Below, in pieces: positions 1 through 12,221 of a DNA stretch of 12,221 bases (positions are counted from its first letter, which is position 1; every line of letters begins with the position of its first letter). The stretch comes from Gemmatimonadota bacterium. Its GTDB lineage: Bacteria; Gemmatimonadota; Gemmatimonadetes; Gemmatimonadales; GWC2-71-9. The stretch covers positions 1 to 12,221 of the forward strand of contig JAZDCZ010000088.1 in the NCBI GenBank assembly GCA_036679605.1, in the 5' to 3' direction. Under the pieces are notes generated by a model. The model was given only the letters and a program-made list of their open reading frames with translations. It had not been told where the DNA came from and ran no database searches. Both the position numbers and the translations under genes were made by a program.

Positions 1-666
1 GAGAAGGTGGTTCTTTCTTGCCGCTCCCCGGGCTGTTTCCAACGCGGCTTCCTGTCGCGATACACCCACCTGAGCCCCAAGCACATCCACCCGCGTCCGG
101 CCGGCCACCCTGAAAAGTCGCTCGGTGGCATCGAGTTCTTCGTTTCTTGCCACCAGCATCCGTTCCTCTATTGCGACGAGGTCTTGAGCCTCCACCAAGC
201 CGTGGAACTGCCGCTTGATGTTCGCTTCCATCCGCGCCACCTCCACTTCTACGCCGGCGAGCGTTGCGCGTGCTCCCGCACGTGCAGCACGCAGGTTGTT
301 GAGGTTTTGGAATCCGTCGAACAGCGTGAGGTTGGACGAGACACTCTGTGAGGAGCTACTGCTTTGAAAGGTTCGGGAGGTCGGCGTCGCCACTGCACGA
401 CCAAAATCATCTGTGCCGGTAAACACGGTGCGCGTCGAGCCGTTGAAGTTCAGGCTGCCGTTGAGATTGGGAAGGAACCGACCAACCCCTGCCGATATAT
501 CGGCCCCGCTGGCATCGGCCCGCACGATTGCCTTGCGGTAGCCGGGGTTCCGCTCCCGAGCAATCTCCAATGCATCTTCCAGCGTCATCTTGGAGGGCAC
601 CTGCTGCGCCGCTGCGCCTGAGGGCGCAAGGATCGCCGCCGCAAGGATTAACGCGCACCTGTTCAT
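1..666 (-). CDS. TolC-family outer membrane efflux protein, N-terminal 222 codons (runs off the window edge)
   Basis: Not in the ORF track. Manual translation from ATG at 666, which overlaps the adaptor stop as ATGA, is open to position 1: MNRCALILAAAILAPSGAAAQQVPSKMTLEDALEIARERNPGYRKA...GRFLPNLNGSLNF...SNLTLFDGFQNLNNLRAARA...ATERLFRVAGRTRVDVLGAQV. It has a signal peptide (AAA|QQ) and typical OEP/TolC motifs (TLEDAL..A...NP, LP.L, LTLFDG, DVL.AQ). Confidence 0.9.
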   Translation of the reverse strand, partial: MNRCALILAAAILAPSGAAAQQVPSKMTLEDALEIARERNPGYRKAIVRADASGADISAGVGRFLPNLNGSLNFNGSTRTVFTGTDDFGRAVATPTSRTFQSSSSSQSVSSNLTLFDGFQNLNNLRAARAGARATLAGVEVEVARMEANIKRQFHGLVEAQDLVAIEERMLVARNEELDATERLFRVAGRTRVDVLGAQVGVSRQEAALETARGAARKNHLL

Positions 667-1844
667 TGTGGCCTCCCCCCAGCTACCCGGACATTCCCGA
701 CCAGTCGCACATGTGCGTCGTGAATCAGGGAATAGTGACCGTCGGTAAGGACCACTTCGCCGGCCTGGACCATCTTCGTATCAGGATTCTCAACTATCTC
801 GATGAGCGAGTCATTAGAGAGGCCCGTTGTCACATAGCGCCACTTGGCCAGCCCGTCCCGGCCCTCTCCCTCAAACACAAACAACAATGTTCGACGGTCG
901 CGCTCCAAAATGGCGCTGCGCGGAACGAGGATTCGGTCGGCGAAGCTCTTCGCCTGCAGTGACACGCGGGCGTACATTCCGGGGAGGATGCGGCCCTCCG
1001 GGTTGGGCACAGTGACCGTGACCCTCGCCGTCCGCGTGTCACGGTCCACGACCGGGTTTATCGTCGCAATGGTGCCGTAGAAAATCTCGTCCGGAAAAGC
1101 TGAGAAAGAGATCGAAGCTTTGCGACCCGGTTGCAAGAACCCGATCTCGCCCTCCAGGACCTGGACCTCAACCTTGATCGGATCGAGATCGACTACCGTG
1201 AGCAGCTCATCTCCCACCCGCACAGCTTGCCCTTCCACAACCCTAATGCTTGCTGCTCTTCCGTCGTATGGCGTACGCACCTTGGTTCGAGCCAGCCGGA
1301 GCTGGGCCTCCTTGAGCCTGACTTCGGCTTCACCCAATCCGCTCTTCGCTCTAGCAACTCTCTCTCGCTCGGCCCTGACCTCGGGGTCTTCTATCTGATC
1401 GTCGAACAGGATAAGCTCACGGAAACTTGCCTCGGCGCGCGCGAGTGCGGCCTTCTCCCGCTCCACGACCAGCTCATACTCGGTGGGATCTATCTCGATC
1501 AGAACGCTCCCGCCTTTGACCGGGTCGTTTTCGCGCACACGCACTCGCCTAACGCGTCCTTCCACCTGTCCCAACAACCTCGACTCCTTCACCGCCGCAG
1601 CCTGCGCGGCCGCGTTGACCGAGACGATCAACGTCTCTTTGGTAACCGTAGCAGCCTCAACCGGAATGGCGATATCGGTCGAGAAGGCGCTACTCGCCGA
1701 GACTGCCGGACGATCTTCGGCACCAGCATTCGCGTCTTCTGAATCCCCTTCACCGCCCTGAAGGCGCAGCACGACGCCAGCACCCAGTAATCCAACAACC
1801 AGGATGGCTGCCGACAGTCCAATCATTCCTTTTGAAATAGCCAT
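663..1844 (-). CDS. Efflux RND-type periplasmic adaptor subunit (membrane fusion protein)
   Basis: N-terminal TM helix, lipoyl-like halves (VEGRVRRVRVRENDPVKGGSVLIEID; TKVRTPYDGR...VVEGQAVRVGDEL), an alpha-hairpin, and INPVVDRDTRT, ILPGMYARV and LVPRSAI motifs. ATG at 1844 is preferred over TTG at 1859. Confidence 0.93.
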   Translation of the reverse strand: MAISKGMIGLSAAILVVGLLGAGVVLRLQGGEGDSEDANAGAEDRPAVSASSAFSTDIAIPVEAATVTKETLIVSVNAAAQAAAVKESRLLGQVEGRVRRVRVRENDPVKGGSVLIEIDPTEYELVVEREKAALARAEASFRELILFDDQIEDPEVRAERERVARAKSGLGEAEVRLKEAQLRLARTKVRTPYDGRAASIRVVEGQAVRVGDELLTVVDLDPIKVEVQVLEGEIGFLQPGRKASISFSAFPDEIFYGTIATINPVVDRDTRTARVTVTVPNPEGRILPGMYARVSLQAKSFADRILVPRSAILERDRRTLLFVFEGEGRDGLAKWRYVTTGLSNDSLIEIVENPDTKMVQAGEVVLTDGHYSLIHDAHVRLVGNVRVAGGRPQ

Positions 1845-2081
1845 ACGTTTCACTCGCAAATTGAGATCGGGTACCCTGCCCAGGGCACGACACTCGTGAG
1901 ATGCACGAGGACCGGGTTTAGTTGCGCACGTTAAATATGCCTAGCTGCGAGCCGGGTGGCGATATCCAGTCCGCGAGCGTTTTCAACGCTCGAACAATCG
2001 AACAGCGAACCAGGAATGATGAATGTCGAAGTGGCCTCCCTTTAAGGCATAGTTCTCTTGTCACAAGCAAAATCATATCTA

Positions 2082-2375
2082 TCAAGCGGCGTGCAGGGGG
2101 ATACGATCGAGTTTCCGACCCATCCTGCGCCGAGCCTCTTCTAGATCAAAGTCGGCTTGCAGTCCCATCCAAAATTGTTCGGACATACCGAAATACTTGG
2201 CCAGACGCACGGCTGTGTCGGCTGTCACCGCACGCTTGCCATGCACGATCTCGTTGATGCGACGTGGCGGCACACCAATGTCACGCGCAATCCGATTCTG
2301 GCTAAGGCCCATGGGTTCGAGAAACTCTTCGAGCAGGACCTCACCGGGATGGATGTTCCGTAGTTTCTTTGCCAT
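2082..2375 (-). CDS. higA: HigA-family antitoxin (XRE HTH)
   Basis: IHPGEVLLEEFLEPMGLSQNRIARDIGVPPRRINEIVHGKRAVTADTAVRLAKYFGMSEQFWMGLQADFDL is the canonical HigA/VapI signature. It lies directly downstream of a higB-like gene. Confidence 0.95.
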   Translation of the reverse strand: MAKKLRNIHPGEVLLEEFLEPMGLSQNRIARDIGVPPRRINEIVHGKRAVTADTAVRLAKYFGMSEQFWMGLQADFDLEEARRRMGRKLDRIPLHAA

Positions 2376-2380
2376 GGTTA

Positions 2381-2668
2381 TTACCCCTTGTGATAATCGA
2401 CGATCTCAACCGCAAAGGCATCGCCGGTTTCCCACTTGAAACAGATGCGCCACTGGTCGTTGATCCGGATACTCTATTGACCCTTACGTCTGCCTTTCAG
2501 TGCCTCCAAACGGTTGGCAGGCGGCACCCGAAGATCGGAAAGCGTCCGGGCGTTGTTCAGCATACGGAGCTTTCGGCGGGCTACGTTCTGGATGTCGGCT
2601 GGTAGCCGTTGAGCACGCTCGCCTCGCCAAATCGACTCGGCCCGATGGCCCCGGAAATCTCGTATCAT
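2381..2668 (-). pseudogene. higB: HigB (RelE-fold) toxin interrupted by an in-frame TAG at 2474-2476
   Basis: Reading through the stop gives MIRDFRGHRAESIWRGE...[65 protein letters not shown], with TAA at 2381-2383. This is a full-length HigB; the TAG replaces the aromatic/His residue of the GQ[YHW]SIRIN motif. Confidence 0.9.
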
Positions 2669-2673
2669 CAAGT

Positions 2674-2771: not shown

Positions 2772-2858
2772 CGTAACAGTGCCGAGCGGGGGTGCCCATG
2801 GCCGAGGTTCCCGGCGTTCTCAACGCTCGGATTTGCTCGTCATGGCTCCGCCGGCGAC

Positions 2859-2972
2859 CGTGCCACCCGCCTCCTACCTATACAGTGGCTCCGAACAGGC
2901 AAAAGGTCACACGTGGGGGCAACCTAGTATACTCTACACCAGTCAAACTCAATGGCTCACAACGAGTTGCGT
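2859..2972. repeat. Diverged ~115-bp regulatory-region duplication (partner at 7484-7596)
   Basis: Hand alignment gives about 86/115 identities. It covers the start codon, SD, ECF-like promoter and upstream blocks (GGCAA, ACACC, TCAA, ATGG, CAACnAGTTGCGT). Confidence 0.85.
2884..2911 (-). promoter_or_regulatory. Putative ECF promoter copy A (orphan; followed by an SD and an 8-aa ORF)
   Basis: TGTGACCTTTTGCCTGTTCGGAGCCACT matches the consensus TGTGACCTTT-N12-GCCACT. Confidence 0.75.
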
Positions 2973-3002
2973 TGGGCGGTAGGACTCAGTAAATACCGCC
3001 CA
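2973..3002. repeat. 9-bp perfect inverted repeat upstream of hicB (operator or hairpin)
   Basis: TGGGCGGTA (2973-2981), N12, TACCGCCCA (2994-3002). It begins exactly where the 115-bp duplication ends. Confidence 0.5.
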
Positions 3003-3091
3003 CTTCTACCTTCTGGACGGTGCGTATATTTCCTAGAGGTCTGAAGGATGGCCTGAGAACACGAGTCACCCGCGCTACAGGAGGAACCATA

Positions 3092-3325
3092 GTGCAGCAT
3101 ACTGTTAACGCTGTGATCCGGCCCGGCGAGCAATCAGGCTATGTGGCCGAATGTGTCGAACTTTCCGTGGTCACCCAAGGTTCTACTCTCGACAGAACTG
3201 TGGCGAACCTGCAGGAGGCTGTGAGCCTGCACCTGGACGGTGAGGATCTGGCCGACTTCGGCCTCGTGTCACCAGTTTCAATAGTCGCCACGCTTGAGAT
3301 AGCTCCGGCGGTCGGTGCCGCGTAG
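3092..3325 (+). CDS. hicB: HicB-family antitoxin (short form, 77 aa)
   Basis: GTG at 3092 follows an AGGAGG SD. MQHTVNAVIRPGEQSGYVAECVELSVVTQGSTLDRTVANLQEAVSLHLDGED matches the HicB partial RNase H fold (GYVAEC..L..VTQG.TL.E...NL.EA..L.L). Confidence 0.88.
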   Translation: MQHTVNAVIRPGEQSGYVAECVELSVVTQGSTLDRTVANLQEAVSLHLDGEDLADFGLVSPVSIVATLEIAPAVGAA

Positions 3326-3440
3326 GCTGCGGCGGCTCGACGGTGCGGAGGTTGTCCGCATTCTCGAAGCATTGGGATTTGCCGTTATCTCGCAACGCTG
3401 CCCCGAAAGCCGCTCCTCAGCTTTGCGCTCTTTACGGTGA
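3315..3440 (+). pseudogene. hicA: Truncated HicA toxin (homology ends at about 3398)
   Basis: GTG at 3315 overlaps the hicB end: MPRRLRRLDGAEVVRILEALGFAVISQR|CPESRSSALRSLR*. The first 28 aa match the HicA N-terminus (L..L.G.EV.R.LE.LGF....QR). The GSH motif expected next is absent. Confidence 0.82.
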
Positions 3441-4238
3441 CCGCCTGGACCACACTACGATAACCCCACACCTGGCGTCGCTACCGGCGAATTCCCCCGG
3501 CACGCTCGATGGCGTGTAGACCTCAATTGCTTCCAAGTCGGACGGAAATAGCACTACATCCGGTCCCAGGTCGGAAATACCATCGATCTTGCCGGTCCTT
3601 ACACCGTCCCAATACAACTGCGGTACACAACTCGTACCAGTTAAGCCTCCAAAACCTCTCATTCGTACACTGGATTGCCTTCCTCCCAAAGAGACGATCC
3701 GCACGCCATGCATAAGTCGAAGAAGGCTGGTAAACCGATTCACGCCCTTTTCTTCGATCTGTTCACGCGTCAAGAAATGGCCAAGACCGCGTCGCTTCCG
3801 ATCGTAGAAGCCCTGCAGCGGCCCAGGTGCAAACCTCTCCCTTTCTGCCGTCACTGTAACGGTCTCGAGCATCTCGATCGGCTTCTTCTTGGAGACTCGC
3901 ATCTGAATGTCGAGGATCTCGCCGTCCACAAGTTCAAACACTGACGTAACCAACTTCGCGTATAATGAGGCGTCCGCCCGTAGTGTGTATTTGCCGGGGT
4001 CTAGAGCGAGAAGGGAGAAGACACCATTCGAGTCGCTAATCGCACCACCCCGCATCCCTCCTTTTTCATCGAGCAGCATCACAGACACAGCACCAACGGG
4101 CCGTTCAGTACTGTCGTCTACCACGGTCCCGTAAATCGTCTGCTGGGCGCTAGCCGCAGGCGGAGTCAGCAGGACAAGGCCCCCGGTGAGCACACCGATA
4201 AGCAAACGGCGAATCACGCTGTCTTTTGTCTCGATCAT
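3432..4238 (-). CDS. Secreted protein with a carboxypeptidase-regulatory-like domain and a TonB-receptor plug-like domain, no beta-barrel
   Basis: Signal peptide (ASA|QQ). IYGTVVDDSTERPVGAVSV...SDSNGVFSL...PGKYTLRA is the CarboxypepD_reg-like part. LETVTVTA, FLTREQIEE and DLEAIEVY...CGVIVVWSR form the plug. The protein ends right after the plug. Confidence 0.85.
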   Translation of the reverse strand: MIETKDSVIRRLLIGVLTGGLVLLTPPAASAQQTIYGTVVDDSTERPVGAVSVMLLDEKGGMRGGAISDSNGVFSLLALDPGKYTLRADASLYAKLVTSVFELVDGEILDIQMRVSKKKPIEMLETVTVTAERERFAPGPLQGFYDRKRRGLGHFLTREQIEEKGVNRFTSLLRLMHGVRIVSLGGRQSSVRMRGFGGLTGTSCVPQLYWDGVRTGKIDGISDLGPDVVLFPSDLEAIEVYTPSSVPGEFAGSDARCGVIVVWSRRSP

Positions 4239-4252
4239 TAGAGGTATCCTTT

Positions 4253-4306
4253 AAGCAGTCCTACACGCATACCTGGTAGAACACCGATCCACCATGAGAT
4301 GTTACC
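4253..4306 (-). promoter_or_regulatory. Possible second ECF-type promoter (GTAAC-N18-GTT) upstream of the plug gene; contains repeat copy 2
   Basis: Minus strand GGTAAC ATCTCATGGTGGATCGGT GTTCTA, about 40 bp upstream of ATG 4238. The AAC..N18..GTT geometry is typical of ECF promoters. Confidence 0.4.
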
Positions 4307-4477
4307 GGCAGGCGTGCAATCGCAGCGAATTGCGCCCAAGGGCAGGGCGTGCCGACAAGGCTCGTAGTAGGGCGTCTGTTGGCAAAAACCAGACAGGAAG
4401 GGTGAGGGGCGACACCTTCGTCTCTTCAGACCGTCAATCCGTCCATCTGCAGTCACAGAGACCGATCCCGCTACACT

Positions 4478-4705
4478 CTAGTCAGGAATTTCCTGGCACG
4501 GAACGGTTACGCAAGAATAACCGTTAAAGTTGCATTCTTCGAAATTGAACGAAACATCACATCCGAAAGCGCCACAATGTGACCAGTTGCATTGATGGCT
4601 GGCTTCTGCCGGCTCCGGGGAGCTGAGTTCTCCGGCCACCAGACCCAACAGAACGACTAGGGTGGCAGCCAAAGTTTTTGTCCAGATGCTTTTCATGGTA
4701 TGCAT
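4478..4705 (-). CDS. Secreted six-cysteine peptide precursor (75 aa)
   Basis: AAGGAG SD upstream. Signal peptide ends PAEA|. Predicted mature 40-mer SHQCNWSHCGAFGCDVSFNFEECNFNGYSCVTVPCQEIPD has spacing C-x4-C-x4-C-x8-C-x6-C-x4-C. Confidence 0.85.
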   Translation of the reverse strand: MHTMKSIWTKTLAATLVVLLGLVAGELSSPEPAEASHQCNWSHCGAFGCDVSFNFEECNFNGYSCVTVPCQEIPD

Positions 4706-4784
4706 GGTATCTCCTTAGTATGTGTGGTGAAGTTGCGCCCCTCAGCGCCTTCCAGAAAAAAGGTTGTGTCCAGTGTGTGTGTTT

Positions 4785-5438
4785 TCACCTGCCTTCCGGC
4801 AGCACAGCGCCCGAATCGGCCCATTCTACAATTGCTTGACGGCCTGGCTTGGTTACCAGAAGCAGTCGATCCCGCTCACCGAAATACAGTTCGTCAGTAC
4901 TGTCCTTCGGAGCCACATAAAAACGCTTGTAAACCAGCACCTGCGGGGTCATCGGCTCGGTAGTATCGTCGGACCAGAGGTACCGCGCCGCGAAGGTGTT
5001 GCCCCAGTTGTAGCCGGCCGATATTTCGTCGAAGCGGCCGAACTTCGTGAGGTGTTCGAACCCCAGCTCAGGTGACCAGTCGAGAGCGACGCCGACGGCT
5101 TTGAACGACCATCCACGTTCCTTGGCATATTTCGCGAGCTGCAACTTGATCGATTCGACCGCGTGCGGCAGCCCGGGCGTATTCGACCACCCGCAGGTGG
5201 AGCTGCCCACGTATGCCATCACCAGTTGTGGACCATTCTCACGTCTGTAGCGCGGGATGTATTCCGACTCTGGGTCCAGTTCGTGAGGGCTGCGATTGAG
5301 CGCAAACTCGACGTCGTAGCGCCGAGCAAGCGTGAAGCCGCTTCCGAGCAAGATGATGACAAGCGCGAACTGTAGAATGCTGCTGGACGTAAGAGACCCA
5401 ACCTGTGAGTGTGCGCGCGATCGTATCCCTTTGAACAT
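4785..5438 (-). CDS. Membrane-anchored thioredoxin-like protein with CxxS (single Cys)
   Basis: AGGAGG SD overlaps the upstream stop. TM helix ILQFALVIILLGSGFTLA, then strand LVMAYVG followed by SSTCGWS, a long helix, strand FKAVGVALD and a cis-Pro-like MTPQVLVY. The fold assignment is by pattern only. Confidence 0.7.
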   Translation of the reverse strand: MFKGIRSRAHSQVGSLTSSSILQFALVIILLGSGFTLARRYDVEFALNRSPHELDPESEYIPRYRRENGPQLVMAYVGSSTCGWSNTPGLPHAVESIKLQLAKYAKERGWSFKAVGVALDWSPELGFEHLTKFGRFDEISAGYNWGNTFAARYLWSDDTTEPMTPQVLVYKRFYVAPKDSTDELYFGERDRLLLVTKPGRQAIVEWADSGAVLPEGR

Positions 5439-5446
5439 GGCACCTC

Positions 5447-6580
5447 CTACTTGGTGAGTGTCAGAACCCTAGCCATCGGGAACGGAGTTTCGTCGGCCGC
5501 GACCACGGTATTCAGGCCCGACCCGAGAATGAGCGGAAACCCGTCACCGAGATACATGCCGCCGGGCCGGTCTAGCCCAATGAGAAACGTGTGCAGCTGA
5601 GCGAATGCCTCCCTGCGCTGCCAGACCCTGCGTGTCACTAGTGCTACCTGAAGTACGACTGCAGTCTGGTCAGCCACCGGGACGAGACGCATTGAGGCGT
5701 GGTAACCTCCCTGTGGAATTCTCAGTTCCGATCCCCTTGTACCCATTGCGATTAGTTCAACTGGCTGGAAGCCATCGATCTCGAGCAGCCACAGCATGTT
5801 GCCGGCTGCGTTGTAGGCCCGAACTTCCGGTAGTGCCCAGGGCGCCAGCAACAGCACACCCGCCTCTTCGAGGCAAGCGATCCGTCCCATGGAGAGCTGC
5901 TCTTGCACGATTCGATTCTCGGTTCGGTAGACCTCGGCGAACGAGTCGAGTGGTTCACCCACGAGTGTATACGACCGGATCGTATAGCCTTGCTCGAGGC
6001 TCGTAGCATGGAGGTAGAGTCGGCCGTTCATAATGCAACCGTCATGGATCCCAACACCGATCTCAAACATGCGCAGGAAACTGATCGAATCCGGTCCGGC
6101 GTCGAAGATGCTTACCCTGCCGCGCGCCTCTAACACGTACAGCCCGCCATCGGGGCCCAATTCAACGGCACGTGGATGTGCGAACTCACCCGGGCCAAGC
6201 CCGGCACGCCCAACCACTTGTAGTAGGGCGCCATCCTCATCGAACATCCGCAGGGTGCGGTCCTGTGAATCGAGGATGATCAGGCGGCCATACGAATCGA
6301 ACGCTACATCCTCGATTTTCCCGAAGACCTGTTCGCGCGGACGATCCATGACACCGACGCGCAACTGTGGCGACGCCGAACGTAGACGATTTGCTAGTTC
6401 TTGGAGCCCTGACGGCGCATGGGCGGAAGAGTCACCGATTGTCACGCTGGCCGATGGAACCGCCGGATGAACGAGACCTTCGGCAATCGGATGCCGCTGA
6501 TTGGTAGGTTCCGAGAAATGTGAACACGCCGTCACGACGAGTGCACAAATGGCTATGCCAACGTGGCGATGGCTCTTCAT
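5447..6580 (-). CDS. 6-bladed beta-propeller (NHL-like) lipoprotein
   Basis: Lipobox-like LVVTA|C. Blade motifs FGKIEDVAFDSYGRLIILDSQDRTLRMFDEDG, VGRAGLGPGEFAHPRAVELGPDGGLYVLE. Confidence 0.88.
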   Translation of the reverse strand: MKSHRHVGIAICALVVTACSHFSEPTNQRHPIAEGLVHPAVPSASVTIGDSSAHAPSGLQELANRLRSASPQLRVGVMDRPREQVFGKIEDVAFDSYGRLIILDSQDRTLRMFDEDGALLQVVGRAGLGPGEFAHPRAVELGPDGGLYVLEARGRVSIFDAGPDSISFLRMFEIGVGIHDGCIMNGRLYLHATSLEQGYTIRSYTLVGEPLDSFAEVYRTENRIVQEQLSMGRIACLEEAGVLLLAPWALPEVRAYNAAGNMLWLLEIDGFQPVELIAMGTRGSELRIPQGGYHASMRLVPVADQTAVVLQVALVTRRVWQRREAFAQLHTFLIGLDRPGGMYLGDGFPLILGSGLNTVVAADETPFPMARVLTLTK

Positions 6581-6581
6581 A

Positions 6582-6629
6582 TTATCGCGACCGCTCGTTC
6601 GTTGTTCTTGTTATTTCAGCTGAGTACAT
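6582..6629 (-). CDS. Short upstream ORF MYSAEITRTTNERSR (15 aa) ending 1 nt before the propeller ATG
   Basis: AGGAGG-CGAA-ATG lies directly after promoter copy B and the ORF ends TAA-T-ATG. The propeller ATG has no clear SD of its own. Confidence 0.4.
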   Translation of the reverse strand: MYSAEITRTTNERSR

Positions 6630-6646
6630 TTCGCCTCCTACTTCTA

Positions 6647-6674
6647 AGTGGCATCGAACGGGCAAAAGGTCACA
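6647..6674 (-). promoter_or_regulatory. Putative ECF promoter copy B (propeller, CxxS Trx, 6-Cys peptide unit)
   Basis: TGTGACCTTTTGCCCGTTCGATGCCACT. Confidence 0.8.
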
Positions 6675-6721
6675 AACCGCCGCAACCGAGTTTCTCCGAG
6701 CACCGCAACTGTAGGTGCGCA

Positions 6722-7378
6722 TCACTGTGCAAAACCCAGCAATTCTTCCAGCTCCACCAGCGAGAGGCTGCGCGACACGAGCCCCTGTTTGTGGACGAAC
6801 GTGGGCGTCCCGCTGATCCCGAGGCGCCGTGCCAATGCCATGTCGCCCGCCAAACGCGCGGCGGCCGCCTCGCCACCCAGACATCGCGAGAACTCTTCAA
6901 GATCGTCCACGCCGGCCGCTTCAGCCTCCCGTACCCAGTTTGGATCTTGCTGCCACTCGGTCGTTTGGAAGAGCTGACGATGCATCGCCTGGAACCGTCC
7001 TTGAGCCTCGGCACAAATCGCTGCCAGGGCGGCGCCCTCAGCAGCTGCATGAAACGAGAGCGGAAAATGACGGTAAACCACGCCAACCTCCGGGTGCTTC
7101 GCGAGTAGCCGCTCGACGGCCGGGGCCGATCGTCGGCAGAAGGGACATTGGAAGTCAGAGAACTCCACCAGCCGAACACTAGCCGCGCCACTATCGAGTC
7201 GGTGACCACCCGCACTCAACGCGGGCCACTGCTCGGCGATCTGATTGCGGATCCGTGTCTCCGCTCGCCACTTCGTAATCGCGTTGCCTAGCAGACCATT
7301 GGGTCCCAGCAACACGAATCCAAGGGCGCCGACGATCAGCACGTTGACCGACCCATTCAATGCTCCGGCCAGCTTCAT
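6722..7378 (-). CDS. Membrane-anchored DsbA-family thiol-disulfide oxidoreductase
   Basis: GGAGGAG SD and N-terminal TM. Motifs VRLVEFSDFQCPFC, VYRHFPLSFH and LGISGTPTF (cis-Pro). A second Cys pair in the helical insert (AAIC, SRC) resembles BdbD-type DsbAs. Confidence 0.93.
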   Translation of the reverse strand: MKLAGALNGSVNVLIVGALGFVLLGPNGLLGNAITKWRAETRIRNQIAEQWPALSAGGHRLDSGAASVRLVEFSDFQCPFCRRSAPAVERLLAKHPEVGVVYRHFPLSFHAAAEGAALAAICAEAQGRFQAMHRQLFQTTEWQQDPNWVREAEAAGVDDLEEFSRCLGGEAAAARLAGDMALARRLGISGTPTFVHKQGLVSRSLSLVELEELLGFAQ

Positions 7379-7507
7379 GTTTCTCCTCCAATCGTTGTAG
7401 TCGCTGGTGCCGTTAACAAATCGCAGATACGGCAGCCGGCAGTGAGAACTGGTGGCGCACCCAGGACGGTCCCCATTTGCGCTCGTGCCACCGCCTTCTA
7501 GTTATAC

Positions 7508-7535
7508 AGTGGCTCCCAACAGGCCAAAGGTCACA
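7508..7535 (-). promoter_or_regulatory. Putative ECF promoter copy C (DsbA-like gene)
   Basis: TGTGACCTTTGGCCTGTTGGGAGCCACT. Confidence 0.8.
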
Positions 7536-7684
7536 AACTGCGGCAAGCGGATTTTACTGGACACCGCTCAAGTTGATGGATTGCAACCAGTTGCGTGTCA
7601 CACCCGCAGAGTCAAGTGCTTTGCGATCGGACAGGAGTCGTGCTCACTCACTCCGTGCGGCTGTGACAAAGCAGGAAAGTGGCA

Positions 7685-7712
7685 TGTGACCTTTGAAGCA
7701 CTGGAGGCCACT
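7685..7712 (+). promoter_or_regulatory. Putative ECF promoter copy D (peptide 2 and propeller lipoprotein unit), divergent from copy C
   Basis: TGTGACCTTTGAAGCACTGGAGGCCACT. The spacer is unrelated to the other copies but the boxes and spacing are identical. Confidence 0.8.
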
Positions 7713-7835
7713 ATAAGGTGTAGGCACCTGGTTGTTGCACGTTCACGGTGCGCGCCTCTTCAGAGCGTATAGGTATGCCGCTGTCGGCCGTGACGGGCTA
7801 ATTTGATCAAACGTACCGAACAGCGGAGGCTCATC

Positions 7836-8054
7836 ATGCACTACCCACTACGCAAACTCATACTCGTGACCGCGGCTATTGTCGCCCTGTCCGCATTACC
7901 CCTGGCAGTCACGGAGTCGGAGGGTCGAGTTTCAATCGGTGTCAGTGACGCATGCGCTCAGGGTGGTTTCTGCTGTCGCCACGAACAGGGTTCGCTGTGC
8001 CCCAGTAGCATACCGGATGGGCAGCCCAAGGGTGACTACACGCCTTGTGGCTAG
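7836..8054 (+). CDS. Secreted cysteine-rich peptide precursor (72 aa)
   Basis: GGAGG SD (7825-7829) precedes ATG 7836. MHYPLRKLILVTAAIVALSALPLAVTESEGRVSIGVSDACAQGGFCCRHEQGSLCPSSIPDGQPKGDYTPCG has basic n- and hydrophobic h-regions and a C-terminal CC-x7-C-x15-C. Confidence 0.82.
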   Translation: MHYPLRKLILVTAAIVALSALPLAVTESEGRVSIGVSDACAQGGFCCRHEQGSLCPSSIPDGQPKGDYTPCG

Positions 8055-8114
8055 TTAGCTACACTGATCCGACGTTGAGTCCGGGTACGATAAAAGCTGA
8101 GTATCACCAATCGC

Positions 8115-9230
8115 ATGGGGACAGTCTTCATGCAATGTAGGTGCACTCTGCGCCGGGTCCGTCTCGCGTGGAGCCTTTCATTGCTAGCGCTGCTCACCCA
8201 TGCGTGCGGTAGCGAGTCAAGCAGCGGGCTACGGTACGGACCGGCTGAACTCGATCACACCGCCGTTGGAGTCATTGACGCCAAGAGCGAGATCCTCTTC
8301 GAGTCGGACACCCTGGCGCTTCCCTCTGACATAGCGGTCGTAGGCGACAACGTGGTTGTCATAGACAATGCCAATGAGCCTGCCGTATTCGTTGTAGACA
8401 GAACAAGTGGAGAAGTGCTGCGTGCGATCGGTAGACGTGGAGACGGCCCTGGCGAGTTCCGGCAGCCCTGGACTCTCGACGCTGTTTCGGGCAGCACGTC
8501 GGAGGTTTGGGTCTACGACTTGGCATTGGGCAGGCTCACGAAGCTGGACGTAACCACATCGGAAGACTCCGCAGACAGCAAGATCGTTACTCTTCAAAGC
8601 AACGGCGCTGCAACGGGTCCGATATGGACCGATGCCAACACGATCGTGAGCCTGGGGCTCTTCGCGACCGGCCGCCTGGCCGTGTTCAACGTGGACGGCG
8701 AGCGGATGGACACTTTTGGAACGGTCCCGCTCGGCCCGCCGAACGTCCCAGCAACGGTGAAGCAGCACGCCTATCAGGCGACACTGGTTCCACATCCCGA
8801 GCGACACCTACTGGCAGCAGTCACGAGACACGCCTCCCGCATCGAGTTATATCGGTCCGACGGCTCGACCGTCGCCATGCTCGACGGCCCTTTGCCATTC
8901 GAACCCCGCTACAGCGTCCGCTCGACAGCAGACGTACCTGTCCTTAAGACCGGCGATGACCTGCGCTTTGGCTACATCGATGGCGCGGGCACCAACAAAT
9001 ACCTGTTCGCGTTGTTCTCCGGCAGGACACGCGAGGGATTCCCCGGGCGTGCAAACTTCGCAAGGTTCGTACACGTATTCAATTGGAATGGCACCTTTGT
9101 GAAAGCCCTTCGCCTGGACCACGACGTGCTGAGCATCGCCGTGGACAGGGAGTCAACGACTCTGTACGCCGTTACGCACGATCCGACACCGGCAATACTG
9201 CGCTATGCTCTATCCGATCTCGTACCGTAG
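8115..9230 (+). CDS. TolB-like 6-bladed beta-propeller lipoprotein (BF3164-like)
   Basis: Lipobox-like LLTHA|C. Motifs PSDIAVVGDNVVVID, IGRRGDGPGEF, GTNKYLFALFSG, VHVFNWNGTFVKALRLD, SIAVD....LYAV. Confidence 0.87.
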   Translation: MGTVFMQCRCTLRRVRLAWSLSLLALLTHACGSESSSGLRYGPAELDHTAVGVIDAKSEILFESDTLALPSDIAVVGDNVVVIDNANEPAVFVVDRTSGEVLRAIGRRGDGPGEFRQPWTLDAVSGSTSEVWVYDLALGRLTKLDVTTSEDSADSKIVTLQSNGAATGPIWTDANTIVSLGLFATGRLAVFNVDGERMDTFGTVPLGPPNVPATVKQHAYQATLVPHPERHLLAAVTRHASRIELYRSDGSTVAMLDGPLPFEPRYSVRSTADVPVLKTGDDLRFGYIDGAGTNKYLFALFSGRTREGFPGRANFARFVHVFNWNGTFVKALRLDHDVLSIAVDRESTTLYAVTHDPTPAILRYALSDLVP

Positions 9231-9256
9231 GGTTTTCCGGGTACTTGCAGCTCGGT

Positions 9257-11416
9257 TTAGGAACCGTCTTCTGCCACATTCGTACCGGTAGGCACGCCCA
9301 GCGCCTCGAGCACGCGCACGATTCCATCCAAAGAGTTCTCGGACAGCCGTATGCGACTCGATCTATCCAGCACCAGGTAAAGCGGTGTTTCCCACAAACC
9401 GAGCGCGTCGCGTGCCTTCCCATCCACCTGAAAAAGTCTCGGTGCGGACGGATGCTGTTGCACGAAACGGTGGAGGCCTGGGGACTGTGACTCCGCCGTC
9501 AAGATCAACACCCGAACCCCGCGTGATTCATAGCGGGCAGTGACTTCCTGCAAGCGCGGCAGTTGATCGAGACACGGGGCGCACAACCAGGACCAGAACG
9601 CCACGAGCGTAACTTGGCCGCCCACGAGTTCGTCTAGCCTATAACTTGCACCCGCCGAGTCGGTCAACTCCACGCCGCCGGGCACAAAGGTGTTGCTCGT
9701 GCCTGCCAGAACGCGCTCGTACATCTCGTTTCGTGCGACCCTCTTCAGCTCTGTCCATCGAGCGCCGTTCACAAGACCGGTCGCCAGCGCCGCAAGCGAA
9801 TCCCGGGCAGCAGTCGTGGTATTCGGGTCGACCGCCAGTCTGGCCAACATGCCAACCGCACCGGCCGTATCGGCAATGCCGAGCCTTACCTCGGCCGATA
9901 CCCCAAAGACCTCCGTATCCCAGCCGGCCGCCGCCTGGTCCAGAGCGTCGAGACCGGCATCGGTGTCGCCCAACTGCACCAGCGCCCTACCTAGCGGTGC
10001 GAGAACTCGGCCACGCTCCGCCTCGTCGTAGCGCCGCTGCTCTGCGGCGGTGCGAGTCAGAGGCCGTCTCCAGCCGGCATCGGTGTCAGCGCGTGCCAGT
10101 GCACCACGCAGCCGCTCTACAGCGACCCTTCTCAATTCCGGCACCTCGGCCAGTTGCTTCGCTACGGCAAGTGCCGCCCACGGTTCCAGCGCCACGCGGC
10201 GGTCGGCCCATCGCAGTATCGCGTCCGGGTTTCCCGCCCGCATTGCCACAGAAAGCGCCATCAGAGGCAGCTGGAAGGAGACTGGGCCAACCTCTTGCCA
10301 CAGCCCTTCCAGTTCCCGCAGCGCACCAGCGCGATCGCTCCCATGTGCGGCTATGATCCGAAAGACACGTTGTTGCACTGCCTGAGGATGGCCCGGTGCT
10401 TCACTTAGCAGCCTGTCCCGCCAGTAATCAACCTTTTCCGGACCTTGCTCTGCGATGAATCCCAGCCAGTACAGTCCCGCCAACGTGTCACCGCTAAGCG
10501 ATATTTCATTGGTGAACCGGCTATGCAACTCCTCGTAGCGCGCTCTCCAACGTCCAGAGAAATCGGTCACGCCGCGTGATTGGTATAAATTTTCCTCGAA
10601 CCCCGCTAGTCGCGACCAGGCATTGGGATTGTCGGGATATAGCTCGGTGGCCCGTCTCGCAGCTTCCAGTCCTCCTTGCCAGTTTCGCTCGCTCAAATCG
10701 TTTTGTTGCTGCACCAACGCGCGATAATCCGGCTCCTCGCCATTGAAGACCAGAAGCTCCCACAACGCACGACGGTTGCTGTCAACTCGCGCACCCAGCG
10801 TATCCTCCACCGCGAATACCGCGTACACCACCGAGTCGGGAAGCTGAACGGTGCCCTCGAATTTCCCGCGTCCAACTTTGTCCAGCTGGCCCACCACAAT
10901 CTGTCGGGCACCCGGATTGTACTCCCGATCGGTGGCCATTCTGTAGCGAGCGCGGAGCACCAGCCGATCTTCGCCCGCGAGCATCGAGGTACTGCGGTAC
11001 TCCACAGCAATCAGATCGCCGCGCTCGGGCTTCTCGGGTGTCAAGATCAACTCTCCCGACATCCGCTCGGCCCCCAAGTCCGGAAGCGAGCGAACCATGA
11101 GAGCGCCTGCGCCCACCAGGGCAACCAGCGCGGCGGCTATCATGCCCAGTCGTTTGGGCAGCGCCGGAAACGGGTCGGACAACGGTAGCACCACCCGCTC
11201 TCCCGCCGCACGCCGCGCCAGGACGCGTTCTAAGATCTCCACGGGCGGTTTCTCGTCCGGCAATGATCTGAGCCGCTCGTCCAAATCCCGAATCGATACA
11301 ACCTTGCGCCGGCACACCGAGCAGCCGGCCAGGTGATCGGCTACCCGCGCACGCTTCTTACCCGCCAATTCGCCGGCGGCGAAGTCACATAGTTTCGAGA
11401 AAGAGACGTGTCCCAT
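9257..11416 (-). CDS. Transmembrane anti-sigma factor: ZAS (zf-HC2), TM, extracytoplasmic TPR-like region, C-terminal TlpA/redoxin domain
   Basis: N-terminal H..(GHVSF)...HLAGCSVC (HxxxCxxC). TM LGMIAAALVALVGAGALMV. TPR-like AARRATELYPDNPNAWSRLA and LGRALVQLGDTDAGLDALDQA. C-terminal GQVTLVAFWSWLCAPCLDQLPRL...LWETPLYLVLD. The ATG directly follows the sigma stop (TAGATG). Confidence 0.87.
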   Translation of the reverse strand: MGHVSFSKLCDFAAGELAGKKRARVADHLAGCSVCRRKVVSIRDLDERLRSLPDEKPPVEILERVLARRAAGERVVLPLSDPFPALPKRLGMIAAALVALVGAGALMVRSLPDLGAERMSGELILTPEKPERGDLIAVEYRSTSMLAGEDRLVLRARYRMATDREYNPGARQIVVGQLDKVGRGKFEGTVQLPDSVVYAVFAVEDTLGARVDSNRRALWELLVFNGEEPDYRALVQQQNDLSERNWQGGLEAARRATELYPDNPNAWSRLAGFEENLYQSRGVTDFSGRWRARYEELHSRFTNEISLSGDTLAGLYWLGFIAEQGPEKVDYWRDRLLSEAPGHPQAVQQRVFRIIAAHGSDRAGALRELEGLWQEVGPVSFQLPLMALSVAMRAGNPDAILRWADRRVALEPWAALAVAKQLAEVPELRRVAVERLRGALARADTDAGWRRPLTRTAAEQRRYDEAERGRVLAPLGRALVQLGDTDAGLDALDQAAAGWDTEVFGVSAEVRLGIADTAGAVGMLARLAVDPNTTTAARDSLAALATGLVNGARWTELKRVARNEMYERVLAGTSNTFVPGGVELTDSAGASYRLDELVGGQVTLVAFWSWLCAPCLDQLPRLQEVTARYESRGVRVLILTAESQSPGLHRFVQQHPSAPRLFQVDGKARDALGLWETPLYLVLDRSSRIRLSENSLDGIVRVLEALGVPTGTNVAEDGS

Positions 11417-11977
11417 CTATTTGGTTCCTTCGAGCAACTCGAGCATGAGAGCCTTCGCTCGCAGCAACCTCATTTTCGAGCCGCCCACGGTTATTCCGAG
11501 CATGCTCGCGATCTCCGAATGCGAATACCCCTCGACGACGCTCATCACGAGCACCGCTCGCAACGAATGCGGCACGCGTGCCAGTGCTCGCTCGAGCGCG
11601 ATCCGCGCTTCGTGCTCCGGCGGTTCCTCAGCCACGGCGGACAGCGGAACGTCGTCAAGGGGAACCTCGGCCCGCCTTCTGGACGAACGGTTTACCCTAT
11701 AGGCGGTTCTGTATGCCACCGTTTTGATCCACCCCTCGAGACTGCCCCGGCCTGTGTAACCTCGCAAAGCTCGAGGCAGGACCATAAAGACGTCCTGAAC
11801 AACATCACTCGCATCGTCACGACACTGTGCAAGTTTGAGCGCTACACCGAAAACCATTGCTCCGAAACGCTCGAAGAGTTCAGTCAAGGCCTCCGGTTCG
11901 CCCGACCGCGCCCGCCTCAGGAAGGCCGGCGATTCCAACCGGTCAATTCTGTCCATCACGGCCGGCGACGTCGCCAT
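11417..11977 (-). CDS. ECF-subfamily sigma-70 factor
   Basis: 186 aa. Region 2 is ARSGEPEALTELFERF...DDASDVVQDVF...SLEGWIKTVA. Region 4 is LRAVLVMSVVEGYSHSEIASMLGITVGGSKMRLLRAK. GAGAGG SD upstream. Confidence 0.95.
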   Translation of the reverse strand: MATSPAVMDRIDRLESPAFLRRARSGEPEALTELFERFGAMVFGVALKLAQCRDDASDVVQDVFMVLPRALRGYTGRGSLEGWIKTVAYRTAYRVNRSSRRRAEVPLDDVPLSAVAEEPPEHEARIALERALARVPHSLRAVLVMSVVEGYSHSEIASMLGITVGGSKMRLLRAKALMLELLEGTK

Positions 11978-12002
11978 GGCACCTCTCGAGGCTCTATACT
12001 AC

Positions 12003-12030
12003 AGTGGCCACGAAGGAGCAAAAGGTCACA
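12003..12030 (-). promoter_or_regulatory. Putative ECF promoter copy E (autoregulatory, 25 bp upstream of the sigma ATG)
   Basis: TGTGACCTTTTGCTCCTTCGTGGCCACT. Confidence 0.82.
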
Positions 12031-12221
12031 TCGGTAGGTTACCCGGATCATAAATCCACTGTCTTCAAACCTTGGGCTGCACTGTACCGGCGATCGGCGA
12101 ATCGACAGAACCAATGCCAATTCGTATCCGACTGGAGGACGGCAATTGTGCTTCCAGCTTCGGGTAGGTGTAATTTGGGGGGTTCGTACCGGCTCCGTTA
12201 GTGCTTTATTGGGACATCGTA

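Follow-up and report, generated by a model that had tools for sequence, protein, structure and literature searches.

The 12,221-nt stretch analysed here (the window; contig JAZDCZ010000088.1 of the Gemmatimonadota assembly GCA_036679605.1) carries five copies of a bipartite motif, TGTGACCTTT-N12-GCCACT, in a gene island around a sigma factor of the extracytoplasmic function (ECF) type. Judged from sequence, the five copies are very probably the −35/−10 promoter of this sigma factor (11417-11977), in a re-coded form of the promoter lying upstream of most related Gemmatimonadota sigma genes. The predicted regulon comprises the sigma and anti-sigma genes, two secreted cysteine peptides, two propellers, DsbA and, probably, an RND pump. 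The predicted promoters and the regulatory pair are listed below; C357 and C294 are contigs of the same genome.

12003-12030, minus strand: predicted promoter for autoregulation of the sigma/anti-sigma operon, the −35 spanning 12025-12030 and the −10 core CCAC 12004-12007; start predicted at 11995, 18 nt ahead of the ATG; the family motif is at the same place in 73 of 81 relatives.
11417-11977, minus strand: ECF sigma factor, 186 amino acids (Pfam sigma70 r2 and r4_2; alignments to solved sigmas).
9257-11416, minus strand: anti-sigma factor, 719 amino acids (Pfam zf-HC2 and AhpC-TSA; hydropathy; structure model and fold matches).
7685-7712, plus strand: predicted promoter of a peptide-propeller pair; start predicted at 7720; equivalents by position occur on C357 and C294.
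7508-7535, minus strand: predicted promoter of a dsbA-like gene; predicted start 7499; boxes unchanged among related sediment contigs.
6647-6674, minus strand: predicted promoter of a second propeller operon; predicted start 6639.
2884-2911, minus strand: predicted promoter directed toward higBA and the RND operon; start predicted at 2875; duplicates the 7508 cassette and has the least certain target.

The pattern matches the window exactly five times, at the coordinates and on the strands reported in a first-pass annotation of this DNA, and none of 200 dinucleotide shuffles gave any match. All five copies are intergenic, as that annotation had held, according to the open reading frame (ORF) list and Pfam. 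In register the motif reads −36 TGTGAC −31, 17 nt, −13 CCAC −10. The 17-nt distance from GAC to CCAC is the same in 5/5 copies, in keeping with the fixed 16-18 nt spacing of ECF-type promoters, and a relaxed pattern found 15 matches at the motif spacing against 0-2 at each of eight other spacings. A scan of the whole 6.7-Mb genome, which the annotation had proposed, returned seven exact copies where 0.0025 were expected from composition. The two outside the window, both on contig C212, are duplicates of the sigma-upstream region, one of them preceding a sigma pseudogene. Genome-wide, no distant regulon marked by the window's variant was found; the predicted regulon is local to the island.

The copies are not all of separate origin. 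Those at 2884, 6647 and 7508 have common flanks (25-33 of 46 positions), and a 115-nt repeat of 76% identity (2859-2972 versus 7484-7596) surrounds the 2884 and 7508 copies. By contrast, the plus-strand copy at 7685 agrees with the other four at merely 12-18 of 46 spacer and flank positions, and it has little in common with the sigma-upstream copy at 12003 beyond the boxes. The five copies thus represent three independent lineages, and the earlier observation that the plus-strand copy keeps the boxes but not the spacer is borne out. The claim that every copy points toward a downstream gene stands as regards orientation, but no long gene lies directly behind the 2884 copy: a broken higB follows after about 200 nt and the RND operon after about 1 kb. 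One related contig joins 2802 to 4329 and so is without the 2884 site. Among related sediment contigs, 1 of 18 box positions seen was changed (in one contig) versus about 1 in 5 elsewhere, a weak signal from a table extending up to 7697.

Relatives of the system were collected with an anti-sigma alignment as query; a first scan of the genome collection with a single anti-sigma sequence had given no match, and 50 single matches in a viral collection were taken as chance. Among 401 genomes sampled from the class, 79 had a match to the anti-sigma. Its loci came from genomes (50) and metagenomes (66), and the named records are Gemmatimonadota or unclassified. The 161 matches fell in 153 loci; a sigma gene lay upstream in 121 cases and was missing in 40, mostly on cut contigs or ahead of N-terminally shorter forms. 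Nine of 120 distinct sigmas lacked an N-terminus or upstream DNA. From the 111 usable ones 81 were kept at below 90% identity and 30 redundant ones were removed; rows L053 and L106 were retained though possibly mis-registered. Unseeded Gibbs searches upstream of the 81 sigmas converged in 4/4 runs on TGTAAnnTT...GGCATT. The resulting family promoter, TGTAA(G/C)-N17-CAT(T/C), has the spacing of the window's motif and exceeded the 99th percentile of shuffles in 73 upstream regions; the −10 of one clade reads CGTT. On comparison of the boxes, the window's TGTGAC-N17-CCAC is a derived variant of this promoter. The first-pass annotation had staked its proposal of a cognate promoter on the motif recurring upstream of related sigma genes; its recurrence in these 73 non-redundant relatives, together with differing bases that track DNA-contacting residues (below), argues for that proposal.

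Two further observations concern the family at large. One 12-kb locus (L220, genome G300) holds five copies of another family variant, AG(A/C)AAG..GCATC, and is a second multi-promoter island. In L041, L055, L108, L118, L125, L142, L144, L145 and L150-L153, anti-sigma relatives match from about residue 85-120 onward and have no sigma upstream; these are possibly sensors without a sigma-binding domain.

We then related the boxes to the sigma residues. By alignment, V66, R90 and R94 of the window's sigma correspond to K56, N80 and N84 in sigma-2 of RpoE; K168 and M169 were equated with R171 and S172 by pattern. When all sigma columns were scanned over 73 rows, column 168 covaried most strongly with −31, 169 with −34 and −33, and 94 with −12, and column 66 ranked second for −11. 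The covarying pairs are those (171/−31, 172/−34 and −33, 84/−12, 56/−11) in Table S1 of Todor et al. 2020 (PMC7776599), here retrieved within a single family. At column 168, Glu occurs with −31 G (28/28) and Arg or Lys with C (28/28). At column 94, Met occurs with −12 A (45/46), Asp with G (10/11) and Arg with C (2/2), and at column 169 Val occurs with −33 A (51/51) and Met with 3 G, 1 T and 1 A. In the accessible mutagenesis data of the same paper, Lys171 gives −31 C at 0.98, and Arg84 has C as its top −12 base (0.49, as a sum of four rows made here). The window's −31 C and −12 C fit this published code via Lys168 and Arg94; −33 was matched to a sigma residue by family covariation only.

A pyrimidine-purine step stands at the expected start in all five window sites and in 65 of 73 family sites, compared with frequencies of 0.29-0.66 at the other offsets (0.29-0.49 at nine of thirteen), except for the overlapping offset at 0.81. 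Scans for sigma-70 promoters and terminators gave no excess above shuffle level. The start step at the expected place favours a promoter over an operator. That the motif is instead the operator of another transcription factor, such as a CRP/FNR-like one, is very improbable. It does begin with TGTGA, which is a CRP half-site, the CRP/FNR operator consensus being TGTGA-N6-TCACA; however, none of the five copies has an inverted TCACA half-site, the family form is TGTAA, the motif is always oriented toward a gene, and its covariation is with the sigma. We assign an equally small chance to the motifs being remnants left by segment duplication, or sites at which a mobile island recombines, with no promoter function. 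The common flanks of three copies would fit such an origin, as would the mosaic island, rearranged in relatives at the 2802-4329 joint, and the two further copies beside the sigma pseudogene on C212. Against it stand the single copy at a fixed place ahead of the sigma across the phylum, boxes retained while spacers diverge, motif bases that covary with sigma residues, and the start-site signature behind the motifs.

The promoter reading could be extended to sister islands in the same genome, which has three more sigma/anti-sigma pairs, on C357, C294 and C13. The window, C357 and C294 pairs form one clade (99), and C357 and C294 retain the peptide-propeller pair. The C357 island carries TGTAAC/CCCC at 3/3 sites and the C294 island TGT(A/G)AC/CACC at 4/4; C13 has one copy of the family form. 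An unbiased search for repeated gapped words returned each island's promoter set as its largest group, and three crossed box variants tested genome-wide gave no occurrence at the right spacing. Across nine positionally equivalent sites of the three islands, the −12/−11 pair is common to 9/9 within-island pairs and 0/27 between-island pairs, despite free flank positions that are closer by position (18.1/41) than by island (14.6/41), indicating that the boxes diverged separately in each island. Between the window and C357, the 16-nt spacer of the sigma promoter is identical, and the boxes disagree at −33 and −11 only. The differing bases pair with differing sigma residues (M169/V and V66/D), and the sister-island variants are partly matched by changes in DNA-reading residues of the sigmas. 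In contrast to the code as described in the part of PMC7776599 available, the switches here are between paralogs of one genome and run across all promoters of each island. Eleven other genomes were chosen for having two anti-sigma matches: the paralog promoters differ in five (one marginally), are the same in one and are not comparable in five. Taken together, the comparison suggests that duplicated switches may be kept apart by rewriting a sigma and all its promoters together. A fourth C294 promoter (12917, plus strand; L008) faces an ORF (13091-13300) for 69 amino acids whose C-terminus is rich in cysteines and which lacks a hydrophobic leader, a peptide of another type.

It is improbable that a sister sigma acting in trans also reads these ECF promoters, or is even their main reader, with the variants reflecting drift and no insulation. 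Such cross-reading would be eased by the Arg84- and Lys171-equivalents that the C357 sigma has in common with the window's sigma and by the two-base difference between their boxes. The single promoter form of both paralogs in genome G294, the one-base differences between paralogs in G080 and G305, and a sigma dN/dS (ratio of nonsynonymous to synonymous substitution rates) of 0.21, with no sign of positive selection, also speak for it. Yet the perfect island sorting of the nine equivalent sites (p 0.004 if independent) needs selection of each site against its own sigma, and both bases that differ between the window and C357 pair with differing residues.

Several results weigh against a re-coded ECF promoter. 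Of the 81 relatives, 8 fall under the threshold for the family motif. Among 40 long loci, just 7 (three from this genome) have at least two local copies, so that a multi-promoter island is the minority form; nor is the cargo constant, since the peptide-propeller pair is near the sigma in just 10 of 42 long loci. G294, with its one promoter form, is one of six assessable paralog genomes, and the genome studied here is a bin with 6.3% contamination. The −11 A is only partly explained: among 67 sigmas carrying Gly at the K56 position, six likewise show −11 A, and the two acidic (Asp) cases at that position have −11 C where the published rule gives A. In the published data available (PMC7776599), Met at the S172 position has no clear −34 preference, and −33 was not assayed there. 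Independent-pair tests on the anti-sigma tree yielded only 1-4 pairs per trait, too few for such a test, none opposite and none significant.

The promoter variants lie beside a mosaic. Window positions 7900-11200 (mature peptide A, propeller, and anti-sigma from about residue 70) are roughly 90% identical to C357, and peptide A agrees in all of its last 32 residues, compared with 54-78% identity in the flanks on the sigma side and 53% over the first 60 anti-sigma residues. Synonymous divergence (dS) between the window and C357 is 1.25 for the sigma, 0.24 for the anti-sigma and 0.30 for the propeller. The sensor side thus has a history other than that of the sigma side, the high sigma dS pointing to segment exchange in place of positive selection. 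In the best-matching sequencing run the two alleles of the shared block are covered equally (15.6 of 31.3), and one contig extends 7 kb past the window start. This fits two copies in one chromosome, though the run may be the source sample and the bin has 6.3% contamination.

Because the window and C357 combine an identical mature peptide and a sensor about 90% identical with sigmas of different promoters, we considered whether the islands are peptide-feedback circuits of two exchangeable halves. The input cassette would consist of the secreted cysteine peptide, the propeller and the TPR-thioredoxin sensor, and the output cassette of the anti-sigma domain, the sigma and the promoter code; one self-made peptide signal would be routed to two insulated regulons, in effect an ECF-based, quorum-like system whose wiring code is swappable. 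We regard this extension as doubtful. A complex prediction of the periplasmic part of the anti-sigma with propeller and peptide A scored 0.00, which counts neither for nor against binding.

The anti-sigma comprises, in order, an HxxxCxxC zinc motif in a helical domain, one hydrophobic helix at about 88-109, a beta domain, a TPR solenoid and a C-terminal TlpA/ResA-like thioredoxin (model pLDDT, a predicted local accuracy score, 85; fold matches to ResA/TlpA and TPR proteins). The thioredoxin CxxC is at 612/615, and CxxC was found in just 2 of 39 readable relatives (42 of 81 were unread). We propose that the membrane anti-sigma would retain the sigma and let it go once a signal reaches the periplasmic TPR-thioredoxin part. 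The signal would most likely be a thiol/disulfide-linked envelope cue, as the thioredoxin domain and the DsbA cargo suggest, or the island's own cysteine peptide. Freed sigma would transcribe its own gene, with positive feedback via the 12003 promoter, and also both peptide-propeller units and DsbA; the RND pump is a probable further target. The output would be exported peptides rich in disulfides, together with helpers for their folding and export. Following duplication, the sigma of each island may have altered its DNA-reading residues and all its promoters may have followed, insulating the sister islands.

In register with the family, the −10 core that lines up with CGT is CCA(C). The 'CACT' of the first-pass annotation was thus one base out of register, and the specificity that it had called unusual has precedents for each half: in the available part of the ECF classification (Casas-Pastor et al. 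2021, PMC7826278), ECF118 is given with TGTGAC, and ECF32/HrpL and ECF231s1 with CCAC. ECF25, with a Gemmatimonadetes subgroup, was rejected, its promoter GGAAC/GTC being no match to the window. As described there, ECF231 has the −35 TGTAACCTT, the form of C357 and C294 and one mismatch from the window (our family itself splits G/C at −31). ECF231s1 has CCAC in its −10, as in the window, and ECF231 and the window both have, at +1, a zinc-finger anti-sigma whose membrane part is a single helix. Unlike ECF231, a Bacteroidetes/Acidobacteria group with a periplasmic HEAT repeat and an adhesin and MacB-FtsX context, our system is from Gemmatimonadota, with a TPR and thioredoxin sensor, peptide-propeller-DsbA cargo and the family −10 CAT(T/C); no adhesin or MacB-FtsX neighbours were among the Pfam matches in the window. 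The hrp box of HrpL/ECF32, GGAACC-N15/16-CCACNNA in the accessible text of PMC8809351, has CCAC at the same distance (..ACC-N16-CCAC). In contrast to the window, HrpL as described there has a −35 GGAAC, no membrane anti-sigma described and a type III secretion regulon; neither this −35 nor such a regulon was found in the window's motifs or Pfam matches. DdvS-DdvA of Myxococcus xanthus, in the portion of PMC11506125 available, likewise couples an ECF sigma to a zinc-motif, single-pass anti-sigma with periplasmic TPR and an enzyme-like domain, and has several promoters (P1-P4) inside one island. It differs in having a CHAT protease domain for the thioredoxin and CBASS/CRISPR-Cas as cargo; no CHAT or defence family was among the window's Pfam/NCBIfam matches or the anti-sigma fold matches. 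Compared by these partly available descriptions, the window is an autoregulated ECF island nearest ECF231 by promoter and DdvS-DdvA by layout that fails defining features of both.

Cumulatively, the analysis offers the following: 1) a predicted promoter, predicted start sites and a predicted regulon for a widespread Gemmatimonadota ECF family that matches none of the published group descriptions compared, so far as these were available; 2) a natural experiment on the insulation of duplicated sigmas, with three sister sigmas, twelve promoters and one to three base changes tracking named residues; 3) sister promoter/sigma sets as candidate orthogonal switches; and 4) two candidate residue-base pairs to add to the published code, Met with −33 G and Val or Asp with non-T at −11, the −11 A found with Val56 and the −11 C found with Asp56 being exceptions to the rule stated in PMC7776599. 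A literature search for Gemmatimonadota with ECF sigma/anti-sigma found nothing, searches on paralog insulation and on bufferins listed unrelated papers only, and one on peptide feedback listed a single review; an earlier listing in Datasets S1-S2 of PMC7776599 or the classification supplement is possible.

The remaining features of the window are as follows.

7836-8054, plus strand: peptide A, 72 amino acids, hydrophobic N-terminus, 5 cysteines (conserved family adjoining the propeller).
8115-9230, plus strand: TolB-like six-blade propeller, probable lipoprotein, 371 amino acids (PF15869, E 1e-19; alignment).
6722-7378, minus strand: DsbA-like oxidoreductase, 218 amino acids, CPFC (PF01323/PF13462).
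5447-6580, minus strand: DUF5128-like six-blade propeller, probable lipoprotein, 377 amino acids (Pfam).
4785-5438, minus strand: membrane-anchored protein, 217 amino acids, probably thioredoxin-like, CxxS (no Pfam match; atlas neighbours unnamed at 0.96, then thioredoxin-like at 0.91).
4478-4705, minus strand: peptide B, 75 amino acids, hydrophobic N-terminus, 6 cysteines (sequence).
3432-4238, minus strand: carboxypeptidase-regulatory-like and plug domain protein, 268 amino acids (Pfam).
2082-2671, minus strand: higB-like gene with an internal stop at about 2474, then an intact higA-like antitoxin (ORF list, repeats, Pfam).
1-1859, minus strand: RND adaptor and TolC-like genes (Pfam/NCBIfam); the operon runs on into C357 with two AcrB genes.

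Peptide A matched no Pfam family, and its atlas matches were all below 0.9. In the 10 loci with the pair, the propeller is always behind a peptide of one family (nine by filter, one by inspection, with an alignment of the family), and 14 further matches to that family were found in 20 paralog stretches. The pair may resemble the NVEALA/BF3164 pairs of Bacteroidota, terms absent from the 20 of 115 papers listed by a literature search. A 15-codon ORF with a strong ribosome site (6582-6629, minus strand) lies between the 6647 promoter and the second propeller gene, ending just ahead of the propeller start.

Near-identical 16-nt repeats (1977-1992 and 2814-2829) flank higBA, which is probably an inserted cassette between promoter and pump. 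A direct repeat of 41 nt and 78% identity (2731-2771 and 4253-4293) lies near the 2802/4329 joint of the related contig, and positions 3020-3420 hold a HicB-like ORF (3092-3325, weak DUF7387 match) followed by an apparent truncated hicA-like remnant. The last 114 bases of C357 are the first 114 of the window, and on C357 the RND operon has a BlaI/BlaR1-like pair at its far end (L230 1099-2684). At the other end of the window, positions 12162-12221 equal an internal stretch of C212 (L001, C212 133,100-140,152), an alternative path or a repeat. Beyond this match C212 has the sigma pseudogene and a second set of DsbA, peptide, propeller, thioredoxin-like and plug-protein genes without the motif. 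More small peptides with a leader and cysteines are encoded in the same genome (G000) on C18, C88, C170, C204, C212 and C282; those on C170, C204 and C212 adjoin propeller or DsbA genes without an ECF sigma of this family.

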